Shown in pieces: positions 1-6,661 of a DNA stretch of 22,154 nt; positions within the stretch are counted from its first letter, which is position 1; every line of letters starts with the position of its first letter. The notes under the pieces are model-generated. The model saw nothing but the letters and a program-made list of their open reading frames with translations, ran no database searches and had not been told where the DNA came from. A program made the position numbers and the translations under genes. Source of the DNA: a virus (lineage: Duplodnaviria > Heunggongvirae > Uroviricota > Caudoviricetes); IMG/VR virus record IMGVR_UViG_2540341091_000004. The stretch is one strand, 5' to 3'.

Positions 1-1164
1 TTACGCCTTCTTTATATCCTCCATAATTCCACAGTGGGACATATTTGGGACATTATCACCAAAAATGTCGTCTATTTTCCTTGCATGCTCTGTCAAATGA
101 TTAGGCGCAAGGTGAGCATACCTACGAACCATTTCTATGGACTCCCATCCGCCCATTTCCTGAAGCACAGATAATGGGACGCCTGACTGGATCAGCCAGC
201 TTGCCCAGGTGTGTCTGAGGTCATGGAAACGGAAATCTTCAATTCCTGCACGACGACAAGCTGATAGCCATGATGTCTTGCTGTCGATGCGCATCTTCCT
301 GACCGCAGGCGTTGATGTTCCATCTGCTCGCTTAGCCGCCTTGGTATGTACAAACACCCATTTGTGATGCTTGCCTATTTGATCACGCAACACTTTACAG
401 GCGGTATCGTTCAGCGCCACACCAATGGCGCGGTTTGATTTGCTCTCTTCTGGATTCACCCAGGCAACTCGTCGCTGCATGTCGATTTGTTGCCATTCCA
501 GATTTATGATGTTCGACTTTCTCAGACCAGTTGCCAGCGCAAACTTGACGACAGATTTCAGTGGTTCGGGGCACTCATCAATAAGGCGTTTTGCTTCCTC
601 CTTTTCCAGCCATCTGACTCGCTTGTTTCTGACCGCTGGTATCTTGATGACAGGCGCTTTTTCCAGCCACTTCCAGTCGCGTTCTGCAGCACGGAGAATG
701 GCCTTTATCATGGCAAGATGCTTTGCCTTTGTCTGAGTTGATACTGGCTTTGGTTCATAAACAGGCGGTTCTTTACCTTTCCTGATGGCGGCCTGAACTT
801 TCTGTTTCCATATTTCTTTCGTCTTTCTGTTATGCATTCTGCTTACAGCAGAGTAAATCTTTGCCTCCGAGATATCTTTAAGCCTTATACCCTCAAAATG
901 TTCAAGCCAGAACTCAATCCGGCTTTTATCTGAATCGAGAGATTTTTTATCAGCTTTTTCCTCAAGCCATCTTAGGCAGGCCTCTTCAAAAGTGACATCA
1001 GGTAAATCCCCTAGCTTTTCTACTCGCCAGAGTTCTGCTTTTCGCTTGTCGTGCAACTCCTGAGCTTGCCGCTTGTCCTTTGTGCCAAGAGATTCCTTAA
1101 TTCGTTTCCCGCCCGGGAGCGAATACGAGGCATACCATATTTCATTTCTGCGGAAGAGTGACAT
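1..1164 (-). CDS. int: Tyrosine site-specific integrase (phage integrase family)
   Basis: 387-aa ORF; C-terminal catalytic region [39 protein letters not shown] is the classic tyrosine-recombinase signature. ATG at 1164, stop codon at 1-3, so attL/att core lies outside the window. Confidence 0.9.
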
Positions 1165-1391
1165 TTTCTTTCCTCTGTTATGCCATCACCCGCGCTCACC
1201 TGGACAGTATGCAGCGGAGACTGAAGCGCCGCAATGCAAGCTTGCCGTGTTGTGAGGTAAGGAGATTTTGGCTTGGTTGGATCTTTACGTGTTGCCTGTA
1301 GGCGGCCTGTTCGTATCCAGTTGGTGGCGGTTGGTCTGGATATCTTAAGAAAATGACAGGCCTCATCGAGTGTGAGGCTGTATGGCTCCAT
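1020..1391 (-). CDS. xis: Excisionase / AlpA-like helix-turn-helix protein
   Basis: Start [31 protein letters not shown] resembles AlpA/Xis HTH. Its ATG (1391-1389) overlaps the upstream stop by 1 nt (TAATG). The frame stays open to 1020, overlapping int by about 145 nt, so the true 3' end is uncertain. Confidence 0.6.
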
Positions 1392-1696
1392 TATTTCACC
1401 TCTTGCTGTGACATTGTTGAAAAATGGATACCAGCTCGTTGCTGCCAGACGATCCAACCGAGAGTCATATCCCATGCCATGTATTCGTTATCGCCGTTTT
1501 TTACTCTCCGACGATCTACTAAGTCACCGAAACGCTTTTCCATGAATAATTCATAAGCTTCGCGTTCATCTGGTTCTACTTCCAGAGATAGGAGTGCGAT
1601 TTCATAAGCACGGCGCTCAATATCGTCTCGCACGTCAAGGCTGCTGATACGCTCTTTAATTTCTTTAATCAGTTCTTTGTCGGTAAAAGTGGTCAT
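1391..1696 (-). CDS. Hypothetical phage early protein (101 aa; size and synteny as YfdT of CPS-53)
   Basis: Complete ORF with ATG at 1696 overlapping the upstream stop by 1 nt; acidic protein with no recognisable motif. Assignment by size and position only. Confidence 0.5.
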   Translation of the reverse strand: MTTFTDKELIKEIKERISSLDVRDDIERRAYEIALLSLEVEPDEREAYELFMEKRFGDLVDRRRVKNGDNEYMAWDMTLGWIVWQQRAGIHFSTMSQQEVK

Positions 1697-2058
1697 TATG
1701 CTCCAGCCTCCGGTGCTTTTGGCATTACTGCCCAGTGAGTGATATTGACGTTTTCAAGGTCCCCGACCTGAAATGTCCACTGCCATTCTCCGGTTTCTTT
1801 TTGTCCCCAGGTGTACCAGAGAGAACGCCAGCCAATTAGCCAGCCTTCTCCTTTAGCATCGAATAACAAAACACTTTCATTTGCTGGTGGCAGTTCAGTT
1901 GACACTGGTATTACTTTGTTTTCCTGTGCTGCACATTTAGCTTCAAGCGCATCGAATTTACGCACCAGGTATTCAGCATCTGTTTCATTTACTTTCAGAT
2001 CTCGCGGTACACATCTCCCACGAAGAAACCCTTCCATTTCGAAAACATTCATGCGCAT
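1696..2058 (-). CDS. DUF551-like phage protein (120 aa; YfdS-like)
   Basis: Trp-rich C-terminus (GWLIGWRSLWYTWGQKETGEWQW) typical of DUF551 as I recall it; size and position match YfdS. Overlaps the upstream gene by 10 nt. Confidence 0.5.
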   Translation of the reverse strand: MRMNVFEMEGFLRGRCVPRDLKVNETDAEYLVRKFDALEAKCAAQENKVIPVSTELPPANESVLLFDAKGEGWLIGWRSLWYTWGQKETGEWQWTFQVGDLENVNITHWAVMPKAPEAGA

Positions 2059-2585
2059 TTGCGTAACTCCGATAACTCGTTAAAGCGTTCCATAAACATC
2101 CCGTAGGCATGGCCCGGTGCCAGTGGAATCACGTTGAACATCTCTGTTGCCGGGATACCTTCCAGTACAGGCCAGAAAGAGCCATCATCAAGCCCGAGAT
2201 CGCGGCGTTCGGTTGCCAGCATGATGAGATCGGCATATTTCACGGGCGTACTCATAACTGGGGGTAACCCGTATTTCTCACGGATTACGGCGTCTATTTT
2301 TTCTTCCATTTGTTTATAGTCAGGAAGAAGGCGTTTCAGTGGTGCGGGAATGTCCTGGCAATACGCTTCTGTTGCATCATGCATTAACGCTTCAAAAGCA
2401 AATTCCTGCGGCACCAGCTGGCTGCAAAGAACCGCATGTTGGGCGACGCTGTAGAAGTGCGAAAGATGACCGGCAAAGCGACAGATATTTGAAAGGGAAA
2501 CCGCGATATCGTTAATATCGATGTCGTCTTTATTTATCCTGTCATAATAAAAATGCTTCCCGGAAAAAGTTTTAATAAATGACAT
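2049..2585 (-). CDS. yfdR: HD-domain phosphohydrolase (YfdR-like, 178 aa)
   Basis: H...HD metal-binding motif (FAGHLSHFYSVAQHAV ... ALMHDATEAY). Start taken at ATG 2585 (MSFIKTF) with GGAG 6 nt upstream, rather than the ORF-track start at 2612. Symbol is from memory of CPS-53. Confidence 0.7.
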   Translation of the reverse strand: MSFIKTFSGKHFYYDRINKDDIDINDIAVSLSNICRFAGHLSHFYSVAQHAVLCSQLVPQEFAFEALMHDATEAYCQDIPAPLKRLLPDYKQMEEKIDAVIREKYGLPPVMSTPVKYADLIMLATERRDLGLDDGSFWPVLEGIPATEMFNVIPLAPGHAYGMFMERFNELSELRKCA

Positions 2586-2712
2586 TTTGTTCTCCACGTA
2601 TATGCGCTGCACCGCGCTGAATTCTGGTAAAAAGAATCCCTCACCATCCTGCGATTATTGAGTAAATTACGTTTCCATAAATGCCCCCGCAGGGGCATTT
2701 GCAGTAATGAAA

Positions 2713-3537
2713 TCAGGCGGTGAAAGTACCAATAAAGGTTTCTACTTTGCTGTCCTTGAATTTCTCAACAAGCAGATCACGAAATTCGTTAGCCATTTCT
2801 TCCTGCACCGCCTCCAGCTGAATAATGCGCAGAACCAGTACAGGACGATCGCCAGTGATAATACTGAGGCGTAATTTAAACGGACGTTCTTTCAGACCTT
2901 CAAACGGAACGCATTTAAATTCAAATGCCACTGGCATAATGTCTTTGGTCTTCGCTTCGACAGACTCCATCAGGGAGCGTTTGCCGCTGAAGTCATTATC
3001 TTCAAAATCAGCGGTCTGGTTTGCTTCAATCGTGATTTTACGGACAGCCGCAGCCGCTTTTGTTGCCTGAATGGCGTCACCATTAGCATCAAAGCCCACA
3101 AGGTAGTCGGCCCAGTCTTCAATCCATTCTGCCAGTGACTTCTGGGAGTTACGCTCGCCGTTAACAGACAACAGAGCAGAGAACGGTGCTGTCTTTTTCA
3201 GTTTGAGAGTGGCGGTGTTATCTGCGTGACCTGGTTCATCAATAGTACCCAGGTTAAGCACACTGACGGCACGCATATTATCGGCATCGATAAAGCAGCG
3301 GGTGCCTTCATCTGCAAGAACTTTAGAATAACGGGTAAAGTCATCGATGCTGGCAGTGGAAAGCGCACCACGGAAACGGAAGCGATTTAAATTAAATTTT
3401 TCCAGATCATGAATGCGGAAATTCTCAGGCAATGCCACAGCATCGGCACCAATCTTACTGATAATTTCATTAACACCCTGAGCAGAAATAAGGGCATGGA
3501 TTTGATTAATTGCGGTTGCGTCTAAGTTCTGAGACAT
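2713..3537 (-). CDS. yfdQ: DUF2303-family phage protein (YfdQ-like, 274 aa)
   Basis: Complete ORF, ATG 3537 with GAGGA RBS; length and position match YfdQ of CPS-53. Domain assignment is from memory, not a search. Confidence 0.6.
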
Positions 3538-3601
3538 AATAAGTCCTCACTATATAAAGATATTCAGTGATGAGATAAATAATCAGTTTATTAGAACGAT
3601 A

Positions 3602-3964
3602 TTAACGACCTGCTGCGCGGAGTTTTCCGTCAGGTTCACCGGCAAGAGTCAGTAATTGTCCCTGGTCTTCCTGCAGAATAGTCAGGCGACCACCGCGATT
3701 GACATACATCGGCGTTTCGGTGGTGTCTTCTTCGGAAATTTTCCCGCGGTTAGTTGGGCGAACATATGAGAGTTTGTGTTTGATTTTCACACGGTTCTCA
3801 TCAAACGGTTCGATTTCCAGATTGAGTGAGACCTTCCCTTTGGTTTTCGTGTTCATCACACCGGAAGCGACCTCACTGAGAACTGCGCCGATTTTGGTTT
3901 CAAATACGCCGCCGTCCAGCTCCCCGATAAATGCCTGCACATCAGTACTGCGTTCGCTAGCCAT
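3602..3964 (-). CDS. Hypothetical phage protein (120 aa; YfdP-like by size and synteny)
   Basis: True start is ATG 3964 with a GAGGAG RBS 7 nt upstream. The ORF-track start at 4087 is the lambda A start codon fused to 41 junk codons. Confidence 0.5.
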   Translation of the reverse strand: MASERSTDVQAFIGELDGGVFETKIGAVLSEVASGVMNTKTKGKVSLNLEIEPFDENRVKIKHKLSYVRPTNRGKISEEDTTETPMYVNRGGRLTILQEDQGQLLTLAGEPDGKLRAAGR

Positions 3965-4060
3965 TTTGCTGCTCCTCATCATATCGACCCTGCAAGGTCG
4001 GTTGGTTTCTCCACAAAACAGAGAAGAACACCTGCGGTGGCAGCCGCCCGGATGGATTGG

Positions 4061-4087
4061 GTTAACCTGACTGTTCGATATATTCAC
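4061..4087 (-). pseudogene. Terminase large subunit (lambda A) 5' remnant - start codon plus first 9 codons only
   Basis: Translation MNISNSQVN matches the lambda gpA N-terminus; homology to lambda stops immediately after GGTTAAC at about 4061. Confidence 0.7.
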
Positions 4088-4607
4088 TCAGCAACCCCGG
4101 TATCAGTTCATCCAGCGCGGCTGCTTTGTTCATGGCTTTGATGATATCCCGTTTCAGGAAATCAACATGTCGGTTTTCCAGTTCCGGAAAACGCCGCTGC
4201 ACCGACAGGGGGATCCCGTCGAGAATACTGGCAATTTCACCTGCGATCCGCGACAGCACGAAAGTACAGAATGCGGTTTCCACCACTTCAGCGGAGTCTC
4301 TGGCATTTTTCAGCTCCTGTGCGTCGGCCTGCGCACGCGTAAGTCGATGGCGTTCGTACTCAATAGTCCCTGGCTGGAGATCTGTCTCGCTGGCCTGCCG
4401 CAGTTCTTCAACTTCCCGGCGCAGCTTTTCGTTCTCAATTTCAGCATCCCTTTCGGCATACCATTTTATGACGGCGGCAGAGTCATAAAGCACCTCATTA
4501 CCCTTGCCACCGCCTCGCAGAACGGGCATTCCCTGTTCCTGCCAGTTCTGAATGGTACGGATACTCGCACCGAAAATGTCAGCCAGCTGCTTTTTGTTGA
4601 CTTCCAT
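4062..4607 (-). CDS. nu1: Terminase small subunit Nu1 (lambda-type TerS)
   Basis: 181-aa protein MEVNKKQLADIFGASIRTIQNWQEQGMPVLRGGGKGNEVLYDSAAVIKWYAERD... is essentially identical to lambda Nu1 as I recall it; complete ORF. Confidence 0.9.
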   Translation of the reverse strand: MEVNKKQLADIFGASIRTIQNWQEQGMPVLRGGGKGNEVLYDSAAVIKWYAERDAEIENEKLRREVEELRQASETDLQPGTIEYERHRLTRAQADAQELKNARDSAEVVETAFCTFVLSRIAGEIASILDGIPLSVQRRFPELENRHVDFLKRDIIKAMNKAAALDELIPGLLSEYIEQSG

Positions 4608-4945: not shown

Positions 4946-5197
4946 ATGAAAATCAGAAATATTCTCGCTATCTCCCTTGCAACATCATCCTTCAGTTGCC
5001 TGGCATTTAAATCCTCGCCCAATGTGCTACCAGGACCAACGAATCAACTAACTGCGGTAGAAAGTAAAATTATCGGACATTTTTATGCCCCACACAGTGC
5101 ATTACCCGGAACAACCATCACAGGGACATGTGACGCCTCCCCCGTCCCGGGATGCACCTGTCCGTTTTGTACTATGCTGCGTAGCCAAAACCGATAA
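4946..5197 (+). CDS. Small secreted protein (83 aa) with N-terminal signal peptide and Cys-containing C-terminus
   Basis: ATG 4946 preceded by AGAGG; MKIRNILAISLATSSFSCLA looks like a Sec signal peptide; mature part contains TGTCDASPVPGCTCPFC. No family recognised. Confidence 0.4.
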   Translation: MKIRNILAISLATSSFSCLAFKSSPNVLPGPTNQLTAVESKIIGHFYAPHSALPGTTITGTCDASPVPGCTCPFCTMLRSQNR

Positions 5198-5258
5198 CAT
5201 CCGCATTTACCTGGTATTCCATGATGAGTTCACGCAGCGACTGATAGAGGAAGGAAAG

Positions 5259-5438
5259 ATGGTTAGCAAAAGCAAGGCGCATTGCCGCCGCATGCTGCAG
5301 GCATTGCAACAGACGAGAGCAGGTATTTTTGACCAGTTGGAAAACTGCCAGCATACTTTGCCCGAGTATATCGCCATCTCATCGGAAACCAGTGCAACTC
5401 TTATTCATCGGGTTCCACTAGAGAAAAAGAAGAAATGA
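5259..5438 (+). CDS. Small hypothetical protein (59 aa)
   Basis: ATG 5259 with strong RBS AGGAAGGAAAG immediately upstream; followed by a hairpin at 5445-5469. No homology recognised. Confidence 0.35.
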   Translation: MVSKSKAHCRRMLQALQQTRAGIFDQLENCQHTLPEYIAISSETSATLIHRVPLEKKKK

Positions 5439-5444
5439 ACAGTG

Positions 5445-5470
5445 AGGCGTTGTGTGGCATACAACGCCTT
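5445..5470 (+). terminator. Stem-loop downstream of the 4946-5438 cassette (possible terminator)
   Basis: Perfect 9-bp stem AGGCGTTGT/ACAACGCCT with 7-nt loop; only a weak T tract follows. Confidence 0.3.
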
Positions 5471-5560
5471 CTTCCATCATTCCTCGTCAGCCATGACAAA
5501 AATATAACCGCTGGCTCTTTCATTTTTCTCCTGCTTCCAGCCCCTCTCTACCTGGAAGCA

Positions 5561-5887
5561 TCAGGGACGTGACGGCGTAAAGATAAATTGTCTCTTCACT
5601 CCCTGACAGGGACGATTCTTTTCAAATCGCCATTTCGCCATGGCCTTCACCACTTCATCACGAAACAAATTATGAGGCTCTGAGCGGAGAAAAACGATCC
5701 GTGTCACAGTCCCATCAGCACCAATATCGAACTTAACCTCAACCAGCCCCTTGATATAATTTGCTGCAGCATATTCCGGATATCGTGGATACACCGTCAC
5801 TAATTGCCGGGGCTCATCAGCTTTTTGCTGCGAGCATCCCACTGCTAGGACAGATAACAGAAAAAGTAGTAAAAGGCGTCTTTTCAT
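5561..5887 (-). CDS. Lipoprotein with TonB C-terminal-like domain (108 aa)
   Basis: MKRRLLLLFLLSVLAVGC is a lipobox signal. PRYPEYAAANYIKGLVEVKFDIGADGTVTRIVFLRSEPHNLFRDEVVKAMAKWRFE aligns by eye to E. coli TonB C-terminal domain (P.YP..A.A..IEG.V.VKFDV..DG.V....L.A.P.N.FE.EV.NAM.RWR.EP). AGGA RBS before ATG 5887. Confidence 0.6.
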   Translation of the reverse strand: MKRRLLLLFLLSVLAVGCSQQKADEPRQLVTVYPRYPEYAAANYIKGLVEVKFDIGADGTVTRIVFLRSEPHNLFRDEVVKAMAKWRFEKNRPCQGVKRQFIFTPSRP

Positions 5888-6367
5888 TTTTATTCCTACG
5901 GGTCTTATTCTGACAATATATCCTGTGTTCCAGACTGCCACATCACCACATCCTGTGCCATTATCTGACTCACATTACATACATCGCATCGGGATACAGT
6001 AGTAGCACTTTCTGTAATACAGCTTCCGGTTTCTTCCACCATCGCACCGGGATAAATCCGCGAATCATTAACGCGGTAAAAACCCGGTGTGCATCGTTTT
6101 TAATTATTCCCGCACACTCACGCAGAAGGAATTCCCCGTCGGGCTACGGTCATGGTTAATGCGGGAATACGGCGACGATACAGCGCAGCTAAAAGGGTAA
6201 TGGACGGATAGACCGGTTTATTTCATTCTACAGGATTCTGAGTGTCCCCAACTCCCTCCAATCGTCTGAGCTCACCTGTGTAGTTTTAATTTTCATCAAT
6301 CCATTTAACTATCGTTTAATTGTTGTCACATAGGATTCTGCCGTTTTTAACAATGCAGGATAATAAG

Positions 6368-6661
6368 ATGAAAAAAATGTTGTTTTCTGCCGCTCTGGCA
6401 ATGCTTATTACAGGATGTGCTCAACAGACGTTTACTGTTGGAAACAAACCGACAGCAGTAACACCAAAGGAAACCATCACCCATCATTTCTTCGTTTCGG
6501 GAATTGGGCAGAAGAAAACTGTCGATGCAGCAAAAATTTGTGGTGGTGCAGAAAATGTGGTTAAAACAGAAACCCAGCAAACATTCGTAAATGGATTGCT
6601 CGGTTTCATCACTTTTGGCATTTATACTCCGCTGGAAGCGCGGGTGTATTGCTCAAAATAA
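6368..6661 (+). CDS. bor: Bor lipoprotein (serum-resistance, Iss family)
   Basis: 97-aa protein MKKMLFSAALAMLITGCAQQTFTV...EARVYCSK, near-identical to lambda Bor as recalled; AGGA RBS. Confidence 0.9.
   Translation: MKKMLFSAALAMLITGCAQQTFTVGNKPTAVTPKETITHHFFVSGIGQKKTVDAAKICGGAENVVKTETQQTFVNGLLGFITFGIYTPLEARVYCSK

Follow-up and report, generated by a model that had tools for sequence, protein, structure and literature searches.

What could a temperate phage gain from a free-standing copy of the domain by which the TonB protein of its host contacts outer membrane receptors? This question is raised by a small gene in the IMG/VR record IMGVR_UViG_2540341091_000004, a stretch of 22,154 nucleotides (nt) which is called the window here and to which all coordinates refer. 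The window is a lambdoid prophage, defective and rearranged, which occupies the argU/intD (DLP12) site in an Escherichia coli strain that carries iss; its closest genome matches are poultry isolates. The gene encodes a putative lipoprotein with a TonB C-terminal domain. Both the open reading frame (ORF) and its TonB similarity are already part of the public annotation (RefSeq WP_000830178.1, 'TonB family protein'; locus CPT_21_73 of phage 21), and the observation as such is known. An earlier sequence-only reading of this DNA had gone further and proposed that the protein blocks TonB-dependent receptors. Its observations were confirmed in every particular, its interpretation in part. The account that we favour, though with somewhat less than even confidence, is that of a competitive decoy which blocks TonB-dependent steps; everything in it beyond the fold and the signal peptide we infer.

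The domain was recognised by profile, sequence and structure comparisons alike. The Pfam model TonB_C (PF03544) matched residues 33-99 (E=7.3e-13; 49.2 bits, cutoff 24.6), and TIGR01352 reached 47.4 bits (cutoff 27.1). By phmmer, the E. coli TonB C-terminal chains 1u07, 1xx3, 2gsk_B and 2grx_C were retrieved from the Protein Data Bank (PDB) at E~1e-14, residues 23-103 of the query being aligned with TonB 150-230; over TonB 150-235, 33 of 86 positions (38%) are identical. An AlphaFold2 model computed from an alignment of 25 sequences attained a pLDDT of 87.9, with values above 97 over residues 30-100, while an earlier model based on six close sequences (pLDDT 60.8) was not used in the fold search. 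Foldseek placed the model on BtuB-bound TonB (2gsk_B) with a TM score of 0.93 and a root mean square deviation (rmsd) of 1.0 Å, and on FhuA-bound TonB (2grx_C) with a TM score of 0.91 and an rmsd of 0.9 Å, the three-stranded sheet and the two helices being superposed on those of the solved domains. Among the 50 PDB matches listed, all significant ones were TonB domains, and TolA domains appeared only at chance level. Translation, Pfam, phmmer, AlphaFold2 and Foldseek thus bore out the earlier description of a lipobox LAVGC followed by a TonB C-terminal-like domain, and the structure comparison in particular placed the model about 1 Å from receptor-bound TonB.

The agreement extends to single residues. 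The phage protein shares the order of secondary structures, the YP motif and the aromatic core with the C-terminal domain of E. coli TonB (~150-239). Residues Y163/P164 of TonB correspond to Y36/P37, which form the YP motif of the phage protein, F180 to F53, G186 to G59, F202 to F75, W213 to W86, Y215 to F88 and F230 to F103. Across the family, P34, Y36, G47, V49, G59, P71, F75 and W86 are invariant. As modelled, the domain is one complete TonB C-terminal fold, with a similarity far beyond chance. The protein does not qualify as a TonB energy transducer. Residues 19-103 align to TonB ~150-240 in the NCBIfam TonB models, which are only the last ~85 positions of these models, and the best equivalog score was 69.2 bits against a cutoff of 315 (the cutoffs span 265-448). 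There is neither an N-terminal transmembrane anchor nor a proline-rich spacer; lacking the membrane anchor and the rod of TonB, the protein can therefore neither engage ExbB/ExbD nor transduce energy.

The N-terminus (MKRRLLLLFLLSVLAVGC continuing with SQQ) exhibits a basic n-region, a hydrophobic core and the lipobox L-A-V-G-C, whose Cys18 is followed by Ser at position +2, and thus the full pattern of an outer membrane lipoprotein (lipobox, Cys, non-Asp +2). By the Lol sorting rule, Asp at +2 holds lipoproteins in the inner membrane and Ser does not. Since the +2 residue is Ser and not Asp, the signal points to outer membrane sorting, as far as this can be predicted from sequence. Lipobox and non-Asp +2 residue are kept in two E. 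coli alleles and in nine relatives (P0037, P0039, P0040, P0042, P0043, P0049, P0062, P0093 and P0103), and they are conserved across relatives of 31-85% identity. Cys18 is separated from the domain by a tether of only about eight residues (SQQKADEP). At the other end, the chain closes with TPSRP, five residues past the strand equivalent to TonB beta3 (residues ~94-103), so that no C-terminal extension lies over this edge strand. Compared to TonB, the phage protein ends at the equivalent of residue 235 and is predicted to be lipid-anchored at the opposite end of the periplasm.

The outer membrane sorting signal, the short tether and the uncovered beta3-type edge strand speak in favour of a decoy. 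In PMC11658791, beta3 of TonB is described to pair with the TonB box of FhuA by beta augmentation, and TonB-dependent colicins are stated to possess TonB boxes of their own. If its signal takes it to the periplasmic side of the outer membrane, the site at which TonB boxes emerge, the phage protein would display a free-standing TonB C-terminal domain on its tether. This domain would dock on the TonB boxes of FhuA, BtuB, FepA, Cir and other transporters by edge-strand pairing of the TonB type or, alternatively, on the TonB boxes of incoming group-B colicins. The bound decoy would deliver no energy and would keep the real TonB off. Irreversible adsorption of T1/phi80-type phages and the import of colicins B, D, Ia and M and of microcins would be damped, while reduced siderophore and B12 uptake would be the side cost. 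By analogy, a direct mechanistic precedent may be seen in engineered TonB fragments, since the periplasmic TonB domain, when overexpressed, inhibits iron import via TonB-dependent transporters (Howard et al. 2001, J Bacteriol 183:5885, PMID 11566987, as cited in PMC9841981). The fragments likewise place the C-terminal domain in the periplasm without the energy-coupling part; they are soluble, overexpressed and identical to host TonB, whereas the phage protein is natural, diverged and, by prediction, lipid-anchored. Sensitivity to colicin M and phi80 was reportedly lowered by such fragments as well.

A likeness in outcome, but not in mechanism, to the lipoproteins Llp and Cor had been suggested by the sequence-only reading. 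According to a preprint (bioRxiv 10.64898/2026.03.26.714494), Llp of T5 and Cor of phi80, N15, HK022 and mEp167 are small outer membrane lipoproteins which block phage entry at FhuA from the periplasmic side, and Llp-like folds are common in a viral structure library. A search of the viral structure library with our AlphaFold2 model gave no match at E<=0.001, and the FhuA:Llp entry 8A60 was not among the 50 PDB matches listed. Thus, the difference in fold held, whereas the common outcome remains an analogy. Llp acts allosterically on one receptor, via the plug, whereas the phage TonB-like protein would compete at the TonB box shared by all transporters. If the decoy proposal is right, it would describe a phage outer membrane exclusion lipoprotein that departs from Llp and Cor in its fold and acts at another site, one that the transporters have in common.

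Several observations weigh against the decoy. Judged by its position, the gene belongs at least to the late operon or its transcript, with which it is co-oriented, and a promoter scan of the gene strand from 5888 to 6320, a region that includes the ~130-nt leader, disclosed no sigma-70-like promoter. When the leaders of the two alleles were compared by eye, only short conserved islands and poor -35 elements were seen, and no convincing promoter. Since exclusion encoded by a prophage needs expression in the lysogen, the position on the late strand, with no promoter detected, counts against this account. Moreover, iron uptake should suffer from any general antagonist of TonB, but the gene is frequent in TonB-reliant pathogenic backgrounds, of which the window, from an iss-carrying strain nearest to poultry isolates, is an example. 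The tail tip of phage 21, which carries the gene, is of the lambda/434 type (the C-terminus of its J protein shares 57% of its residues with lambda J and 55% with 434 J), and the gene is not obviously tied to phages using TonB-dependent receptors. For the same reason, self-exclusion via the phage's own TonB-dependent receptor was rejected as a general explanation. In the phmmer alignment, the TonB residues Q160 and R166, both implicated in transporter contacts, are replaced by Tyr33 and Tyr39, respectively. Finally, there are chromosomal relatives outside phages, and the domain may serve a housekeeping partner.

The late position leads to another reading, which we consider unlikely: the protein might be made by late-operon transcription only and act at the outer membrane during or after lysis, either by disabling the TonB-dependent receptors of dying cells and of their debris, so that progeny are spared, or by assisting envelope breakdown. 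For T5 Llp, it has been proposed that progeny are spared from receptors on debris. In every context, unrelated phages included, the gene lies on the strand of the lysis cassette and immediately downstream of it, no promoter of its own was detected, and its family, 1267 of PHROGs, is filed under lysis. However, complete i-/o-spanin pairs are already present in all phages examined, and the globular fold without a C-terminal membrane segment is unlike that of spanins. The tail tip of phage 21 looks porin-directed, so that there is no obvious need to protect its progeny from TonB-dependent receptors. Debris would also be a weak sink, as the irreversible binding of TonB-dependent phages needs energised cells.

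The gene sits between bor/iss (6368-6661, plus strand) and the small terminase gene (4062-4607, minus strand), in agreement with the place between bor and cos given to it before. In line with the sequence-only reading, by which it is not part of the lambda sequence there, lambda-type phages such as HK630 have p78/p79 instead. At a DNA identity of at least 95%, the gene was detected in 1224 of 5426 complete E. coli genomes, and it is present in seven records of isolated phages, among them the classical phage 21, whose depositors called the product 'TonB C-terminal domain protein'. The second E. coli allele, with about 70-72% protein identity, occurs in Stx1a-converting phages and elsewhere. In 80 of 80 IMG/VR loci the order was Rz, optional bor, TonB-like gene, a short conserved tail and the small terminase gene, with the TonB-like gene always on the late-gene strand. 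The small terminase genes of these loci are 37%-100% identical to that of the window and hence represent several divergent types. In a large share of the loci bor is missing while the TonB-like gene stays.

More distant relatives were found by an exhaustive profile search, which yielded 5311 TonB_C proteins; several of the best, 107-133 aa long, share the architecture of the window protein, and the nine relatives named above belong to this set. P0037 (44% identity) follows an i-/o-spanin pair and precedes HNH and terminase genes in an HK97-like phage, and a 62% relative of it occupies the same slot after lysis and before terminase genes in the Klebsiella phage ST13-OXA48phi12.4. P0042 (38% identity) comes after holin, endolysin and spanins and before another terminase type. 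Relatives at 38-62% identity share this slot in unrelated phages of Klebsiella and other enterobacteria, in which full spanin pairs are already present. P0062 (36% identity; L097, 5348-5737, Logan SRR10097270 contig) resides on a ParM/StbA plasmid, one gene apart from a Qat (QatA-D-like) defence system; the PADLOC-DB defence models themselves gave no match for the window protein or three relatives. P0043 and P0049 lie among ordinary chromosomal genes, and a single-protein scan gave one locus, in Pantoea sp. IMH, with a 51% relative of P0043. Chromosomal stand-alone lipoproteins with TonB_C (L088-L093, L215; 37-42% identity) are encoded beside ahpCF and a GST gene, or beside Usp and an acetyltransferase gene, and may point to the original function of the family. 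A restriction to prophages, which the sequence-only reading had raised, was therefore seen in part: the gene is carried on mobile elements, but relatives at 37-42% identity stand in ordinary chromosomal contexts. Taken as sequences, these proteins make up a family of apparently lipid-anchored, stand-alone TonB domains, which seems to have been repeatedly recruited to the lysis-packaging cargo slot of temperate phages.

The chromosomal relatives, both the Pantoea-like one and those of other bacteria, stand beside metabolic genes and suggest a role of the family other than defence. It is conceivable, if rather unlikely, that the TonB-like fold serves as a generic strand-capturing or envelope-binding module, the partner being a periplasmic protein, peptidoglycan or another outer membrane protein. 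The benefit would then be a trait of lysogenic conversion such as envelope robustness or serum survival, alongside bor/iss, which the gene often adjoins. The related fold of TolA domain III, weakly matched by Foldseek, binds varied partners. Against this stand the loci that have kept the gene without bor and the fact that the nearest matches in sequence and structure are true receptor-bound TonB domains and not TolA; none of the results points to an alternative partner.

An improbable variant of the decoy has the same structural logic. Here the domain would capture the TonB boxes of incoming group-B colicins and pesticin-like toxins, stall their import and render the lysogen tolerant in the gut. 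The colicin TonB boxes mentioned above agree with such a trap, as does the high frequency of the gene in E. coli from the gut and from poultry. On the other hand, the TonB boxes of transporters are far more abundant at the same location, and the trap would need expression in the lysogen, for which the scan revealed no promoter of the gene's own.

The two E. coli alleles differ by dN 0.18 and dS ~1.4, the latter being saturated, with dN/dS 0.13. Thus, this is a real gene under purifying selection. Of the 19 allele differences within the domain, nine fall on the 18 positions equivalent to TonB 158-165 and 222-231, as against ten on the 65 positions elsewhere (Fisher p=0.004, the segments having been picked post hoc, after the data had been seen). 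These segments are residues 31-38 and 95-104 (window ~5774-5797 and ~5576-5605, respectively); the former corresponds to the Q160 region of TonB, the latter to its beta3 strand. The clustering could mean that target specificity is diversifying, or it could merely mark surface positions; the alleles may differ in target preference. Because the TonB box is common to all TonB-dependent transporters, mimicry of this host machine would afford broad protection and not the masking of a single receptor. That one outer membrane protein of 91 residues protects against every TonB-dependent phage and bacteriocin, with alleles differing in their TonB-box preference, is a doubtful extension of the decoy proposal.

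The same data bear on the suspicion, voiced in the records of the phages ev017 and Perceval ('partial tonB-like membrane protein', 'TonB fragment'), that the gene is a functionless, decaying fragment of a captured tonB. The 38% identity to E. coli TonB and the presence of the C-terminal third alone would fit, yet we regard decay as very improbable. The gene has its own ribosome binding site (RBS) and a lipoprotein signal, which TonB is without. Its dN/dS is low, even if dS is saturated, intact copies at 99% identity or more exist in over 1200 genomes, and relatives from several genera, some with no more than 31% identity, have retained the same architecture.

Least credible is that the protein is an outer membrane or unimolecular spanin of the lysis cassette, as its full-length match to phrog_1267 'Rz-like spanin' (E=5e-43) and its place as a putative lipoprotein adjoining Rz would have it, because when held against the i-spanin (N-terminal membrane segment and coiled coil), the o-spanin (short proline-rich lipoprotein, paired) and the u-spanin (lipobox and C-terminal membrane segment) it exhibits neither a C-terminal membrane segment nor a proline-rich unstructured body but a compact TonB fold, and because spanins are already there: Rz with embedded Rz1 is intact in the window, the spanin gene of L085 embeds the proline-rich C-terminal part of an Rz1-like frame, and L094 has an overlapping pair, one member with an N-terminal membrane segment and the other with a lipobox. 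The label was rejected on these grounds. The same PHROG groups the window protein with Klebsiella and enterobacterial relatives, and pipelines that take their names from PHROGs would spread the mislabel.

The gene deserves attention for its frequency alone. More than one fifth of the complete E. coli genomes carry the window allele, to which phage 21, the Stx1a-converting phages and Klebsiella prophages have to be added, and the label is generic or wrong. A full-text literature search, in which subscription journals were thinly covered and absence is thus unproven, yielded no functional study of the protein and no proposal of a decoy. If true, the decoy would add a mechanism to phage superinfection exclusion and colicin tolerance, and lysogens would be altered in their susceptibility to TonB-dependent therapeutic phages, siderophore-antibiotic conjugates and microcins. 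It would also provide a natural, compact inhibitor of the interaction between TonB and its transporters, which is a pursued drug target. Should the idea fail, this family would still put the TonB fold to an unexplained use, on mobile elements as well as on chromosomes.

The features of the locus are compiled in the table.

Table. Features of the TonB-like gene and its surroundings in the window
Feature	Position	Strand	Basis
Coding sequence of a 108-aa putative lipoprotein with TonB C-terminal domain	5561..5887	minus	ORF and annotation
Shine-Dalgarno sequence AGGA, 6 nt before the ATG	5894..5897	minus	read from sequence
Lipoprotein signal peptide (residues 1-17) and lipidated Cys18 (predicted), lipobox LAVGC, Ser at +2	5834..5887	minus	translation
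TonB C-terminal domain, residues 26-103, equivalent to E. coli TonB 153-230	5579..5812	minus	profile and structure matches
Hairpin directly 3' of the stop codon, GCTTCCAG-11 nt-CTGGAAGC, no T-run	5533..5559	minus	read from sequence
GC-rich hairpin GGCGTTGT...ACAACGCC, T-rich on both sides	5446..5468	.	read from sequence
Gene-specific upstream leader, ~130 nt	5888..6019	minus	alignment of upstream regions
Conserved, apparently structured RNA element	6020..6189	minus	conservation and pairing analysis
Parts of the RNA element: 5' domain; 3' hairpin	~6091-6181; ~6026-6050	minus	pairing analysis

The ORF runs on the minus strand from an ATG at 5887-5885 to a TGA at 5563-5561. At the position equivalent to the Shine-Dalgarno sequence, an RBS is annotated in the phage 21 record. 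Alignment of bor-plus, bor-minus and second-allele loci revealed that the leader accompanies the gene in all contexts. A Fur box near a conserved GATAAT was considered and dropped, the match by eye covering only ~10 of 19 positions. Downstream, two hairpins follow, one of them with T-rich sequence behind it. The latter (5446..5468) is a possible two-way terminator closing the cargo unit; neither it nor the hairpin at the stop codon (5533..5559) was called by the terminator scan. Thus, of the marks of a moron, an own promoter and a terminator, no promoter-like site and these two hairpins were seen.

Lambda bor, E. coli iss and the lambdoid 'moron' cargo between Rz and cos share the slot of the TonB-like gene. 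Bor is an outer membrane lipoprotein too, and its gene is often adjacent and divergent, but Bor has no relation to the TonB-like protein in sequence or fold and is encoded on the opposite strand. Lambda bor is described as being expressed in lysogens from its own promoter. In HK630 a promoter feature is annotated upstream of bor on the bor strand, whereas for the TonB-like gene, on the late strand, none was found.

Upstream of the leader, there is a block of ~170-185 nt, apparently a structured RNA element, which differs less between the two allele contexts than the coding sequence does. It was found in 432 phage records including lambda-type ones, with or without the TonB-like gene and always after Rz/bor, and homologues are present in L001-L212. 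Where the TonB-like gene is absent, a reading frame resembling a small terminase often lies ~200-270 nt beyond the element. In 57 distinct variants, the proposed structure of 37 pairs was 98.5% paired, compared to 29-61% when the partners were slid by one to three columns, and neither the pairing nor the covariation score was equalled in any of 500 shuffles. Only three pairs change on both sides; most of the variation consists of C/U facing G or of A/G facing U, and hence pairing is kept on the late-transcript strand only. The alifold energies are -32 for the late-transcript strand and -18 for the other strand. Rfam offered no credible family for the element, and matches to miRNAs elsewhere in the searched stretch were at chance level. 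In HK630 the homologous block overlaps the promoter feature annotated on the bor strand. The element may function within the late transcript, either as a stable RNA or as one that acts in cis.

A tail of ~700 bp, which always accompanies the TonB-like gene, contains two ORFs overlapping on opposite strands (5172-5354, minus, 60 aa, phrog_3744; ~5259-5438, plus, 59 aa, phrog_4843). Both PHROGs are without assigned function, and at most one of the ORFs is likely to be real. The one on the plus strand ends shortly before the hairpin at 5446-5468. Beyond the small terminase gene, the window continues with early genes of the yfdP, yfdQ, yfdR and yfdT type and with intD next to tRNA-Arg; a gene for the large terminase subunit is absent there. 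The closest genome, GPEC1054 (L003), possesses an extra IS2 in the region corresponding to window 1-4607, which is absent from the window.

All seven isolated-phage records with the TonB-like gene also contain sitABCD, a TonB-independent Fe/Mn importer (phage 21 record OL657228, 21967-25416; L084), while only 27 of the 50,697 phage records have sitA. A functional link between the two was rejected, since the sitA probe was detected in only one of the 80 IMG/VR contigs with the gene. The co-occurrence probably reflects one clonal phage lineage and not a functional pairing.

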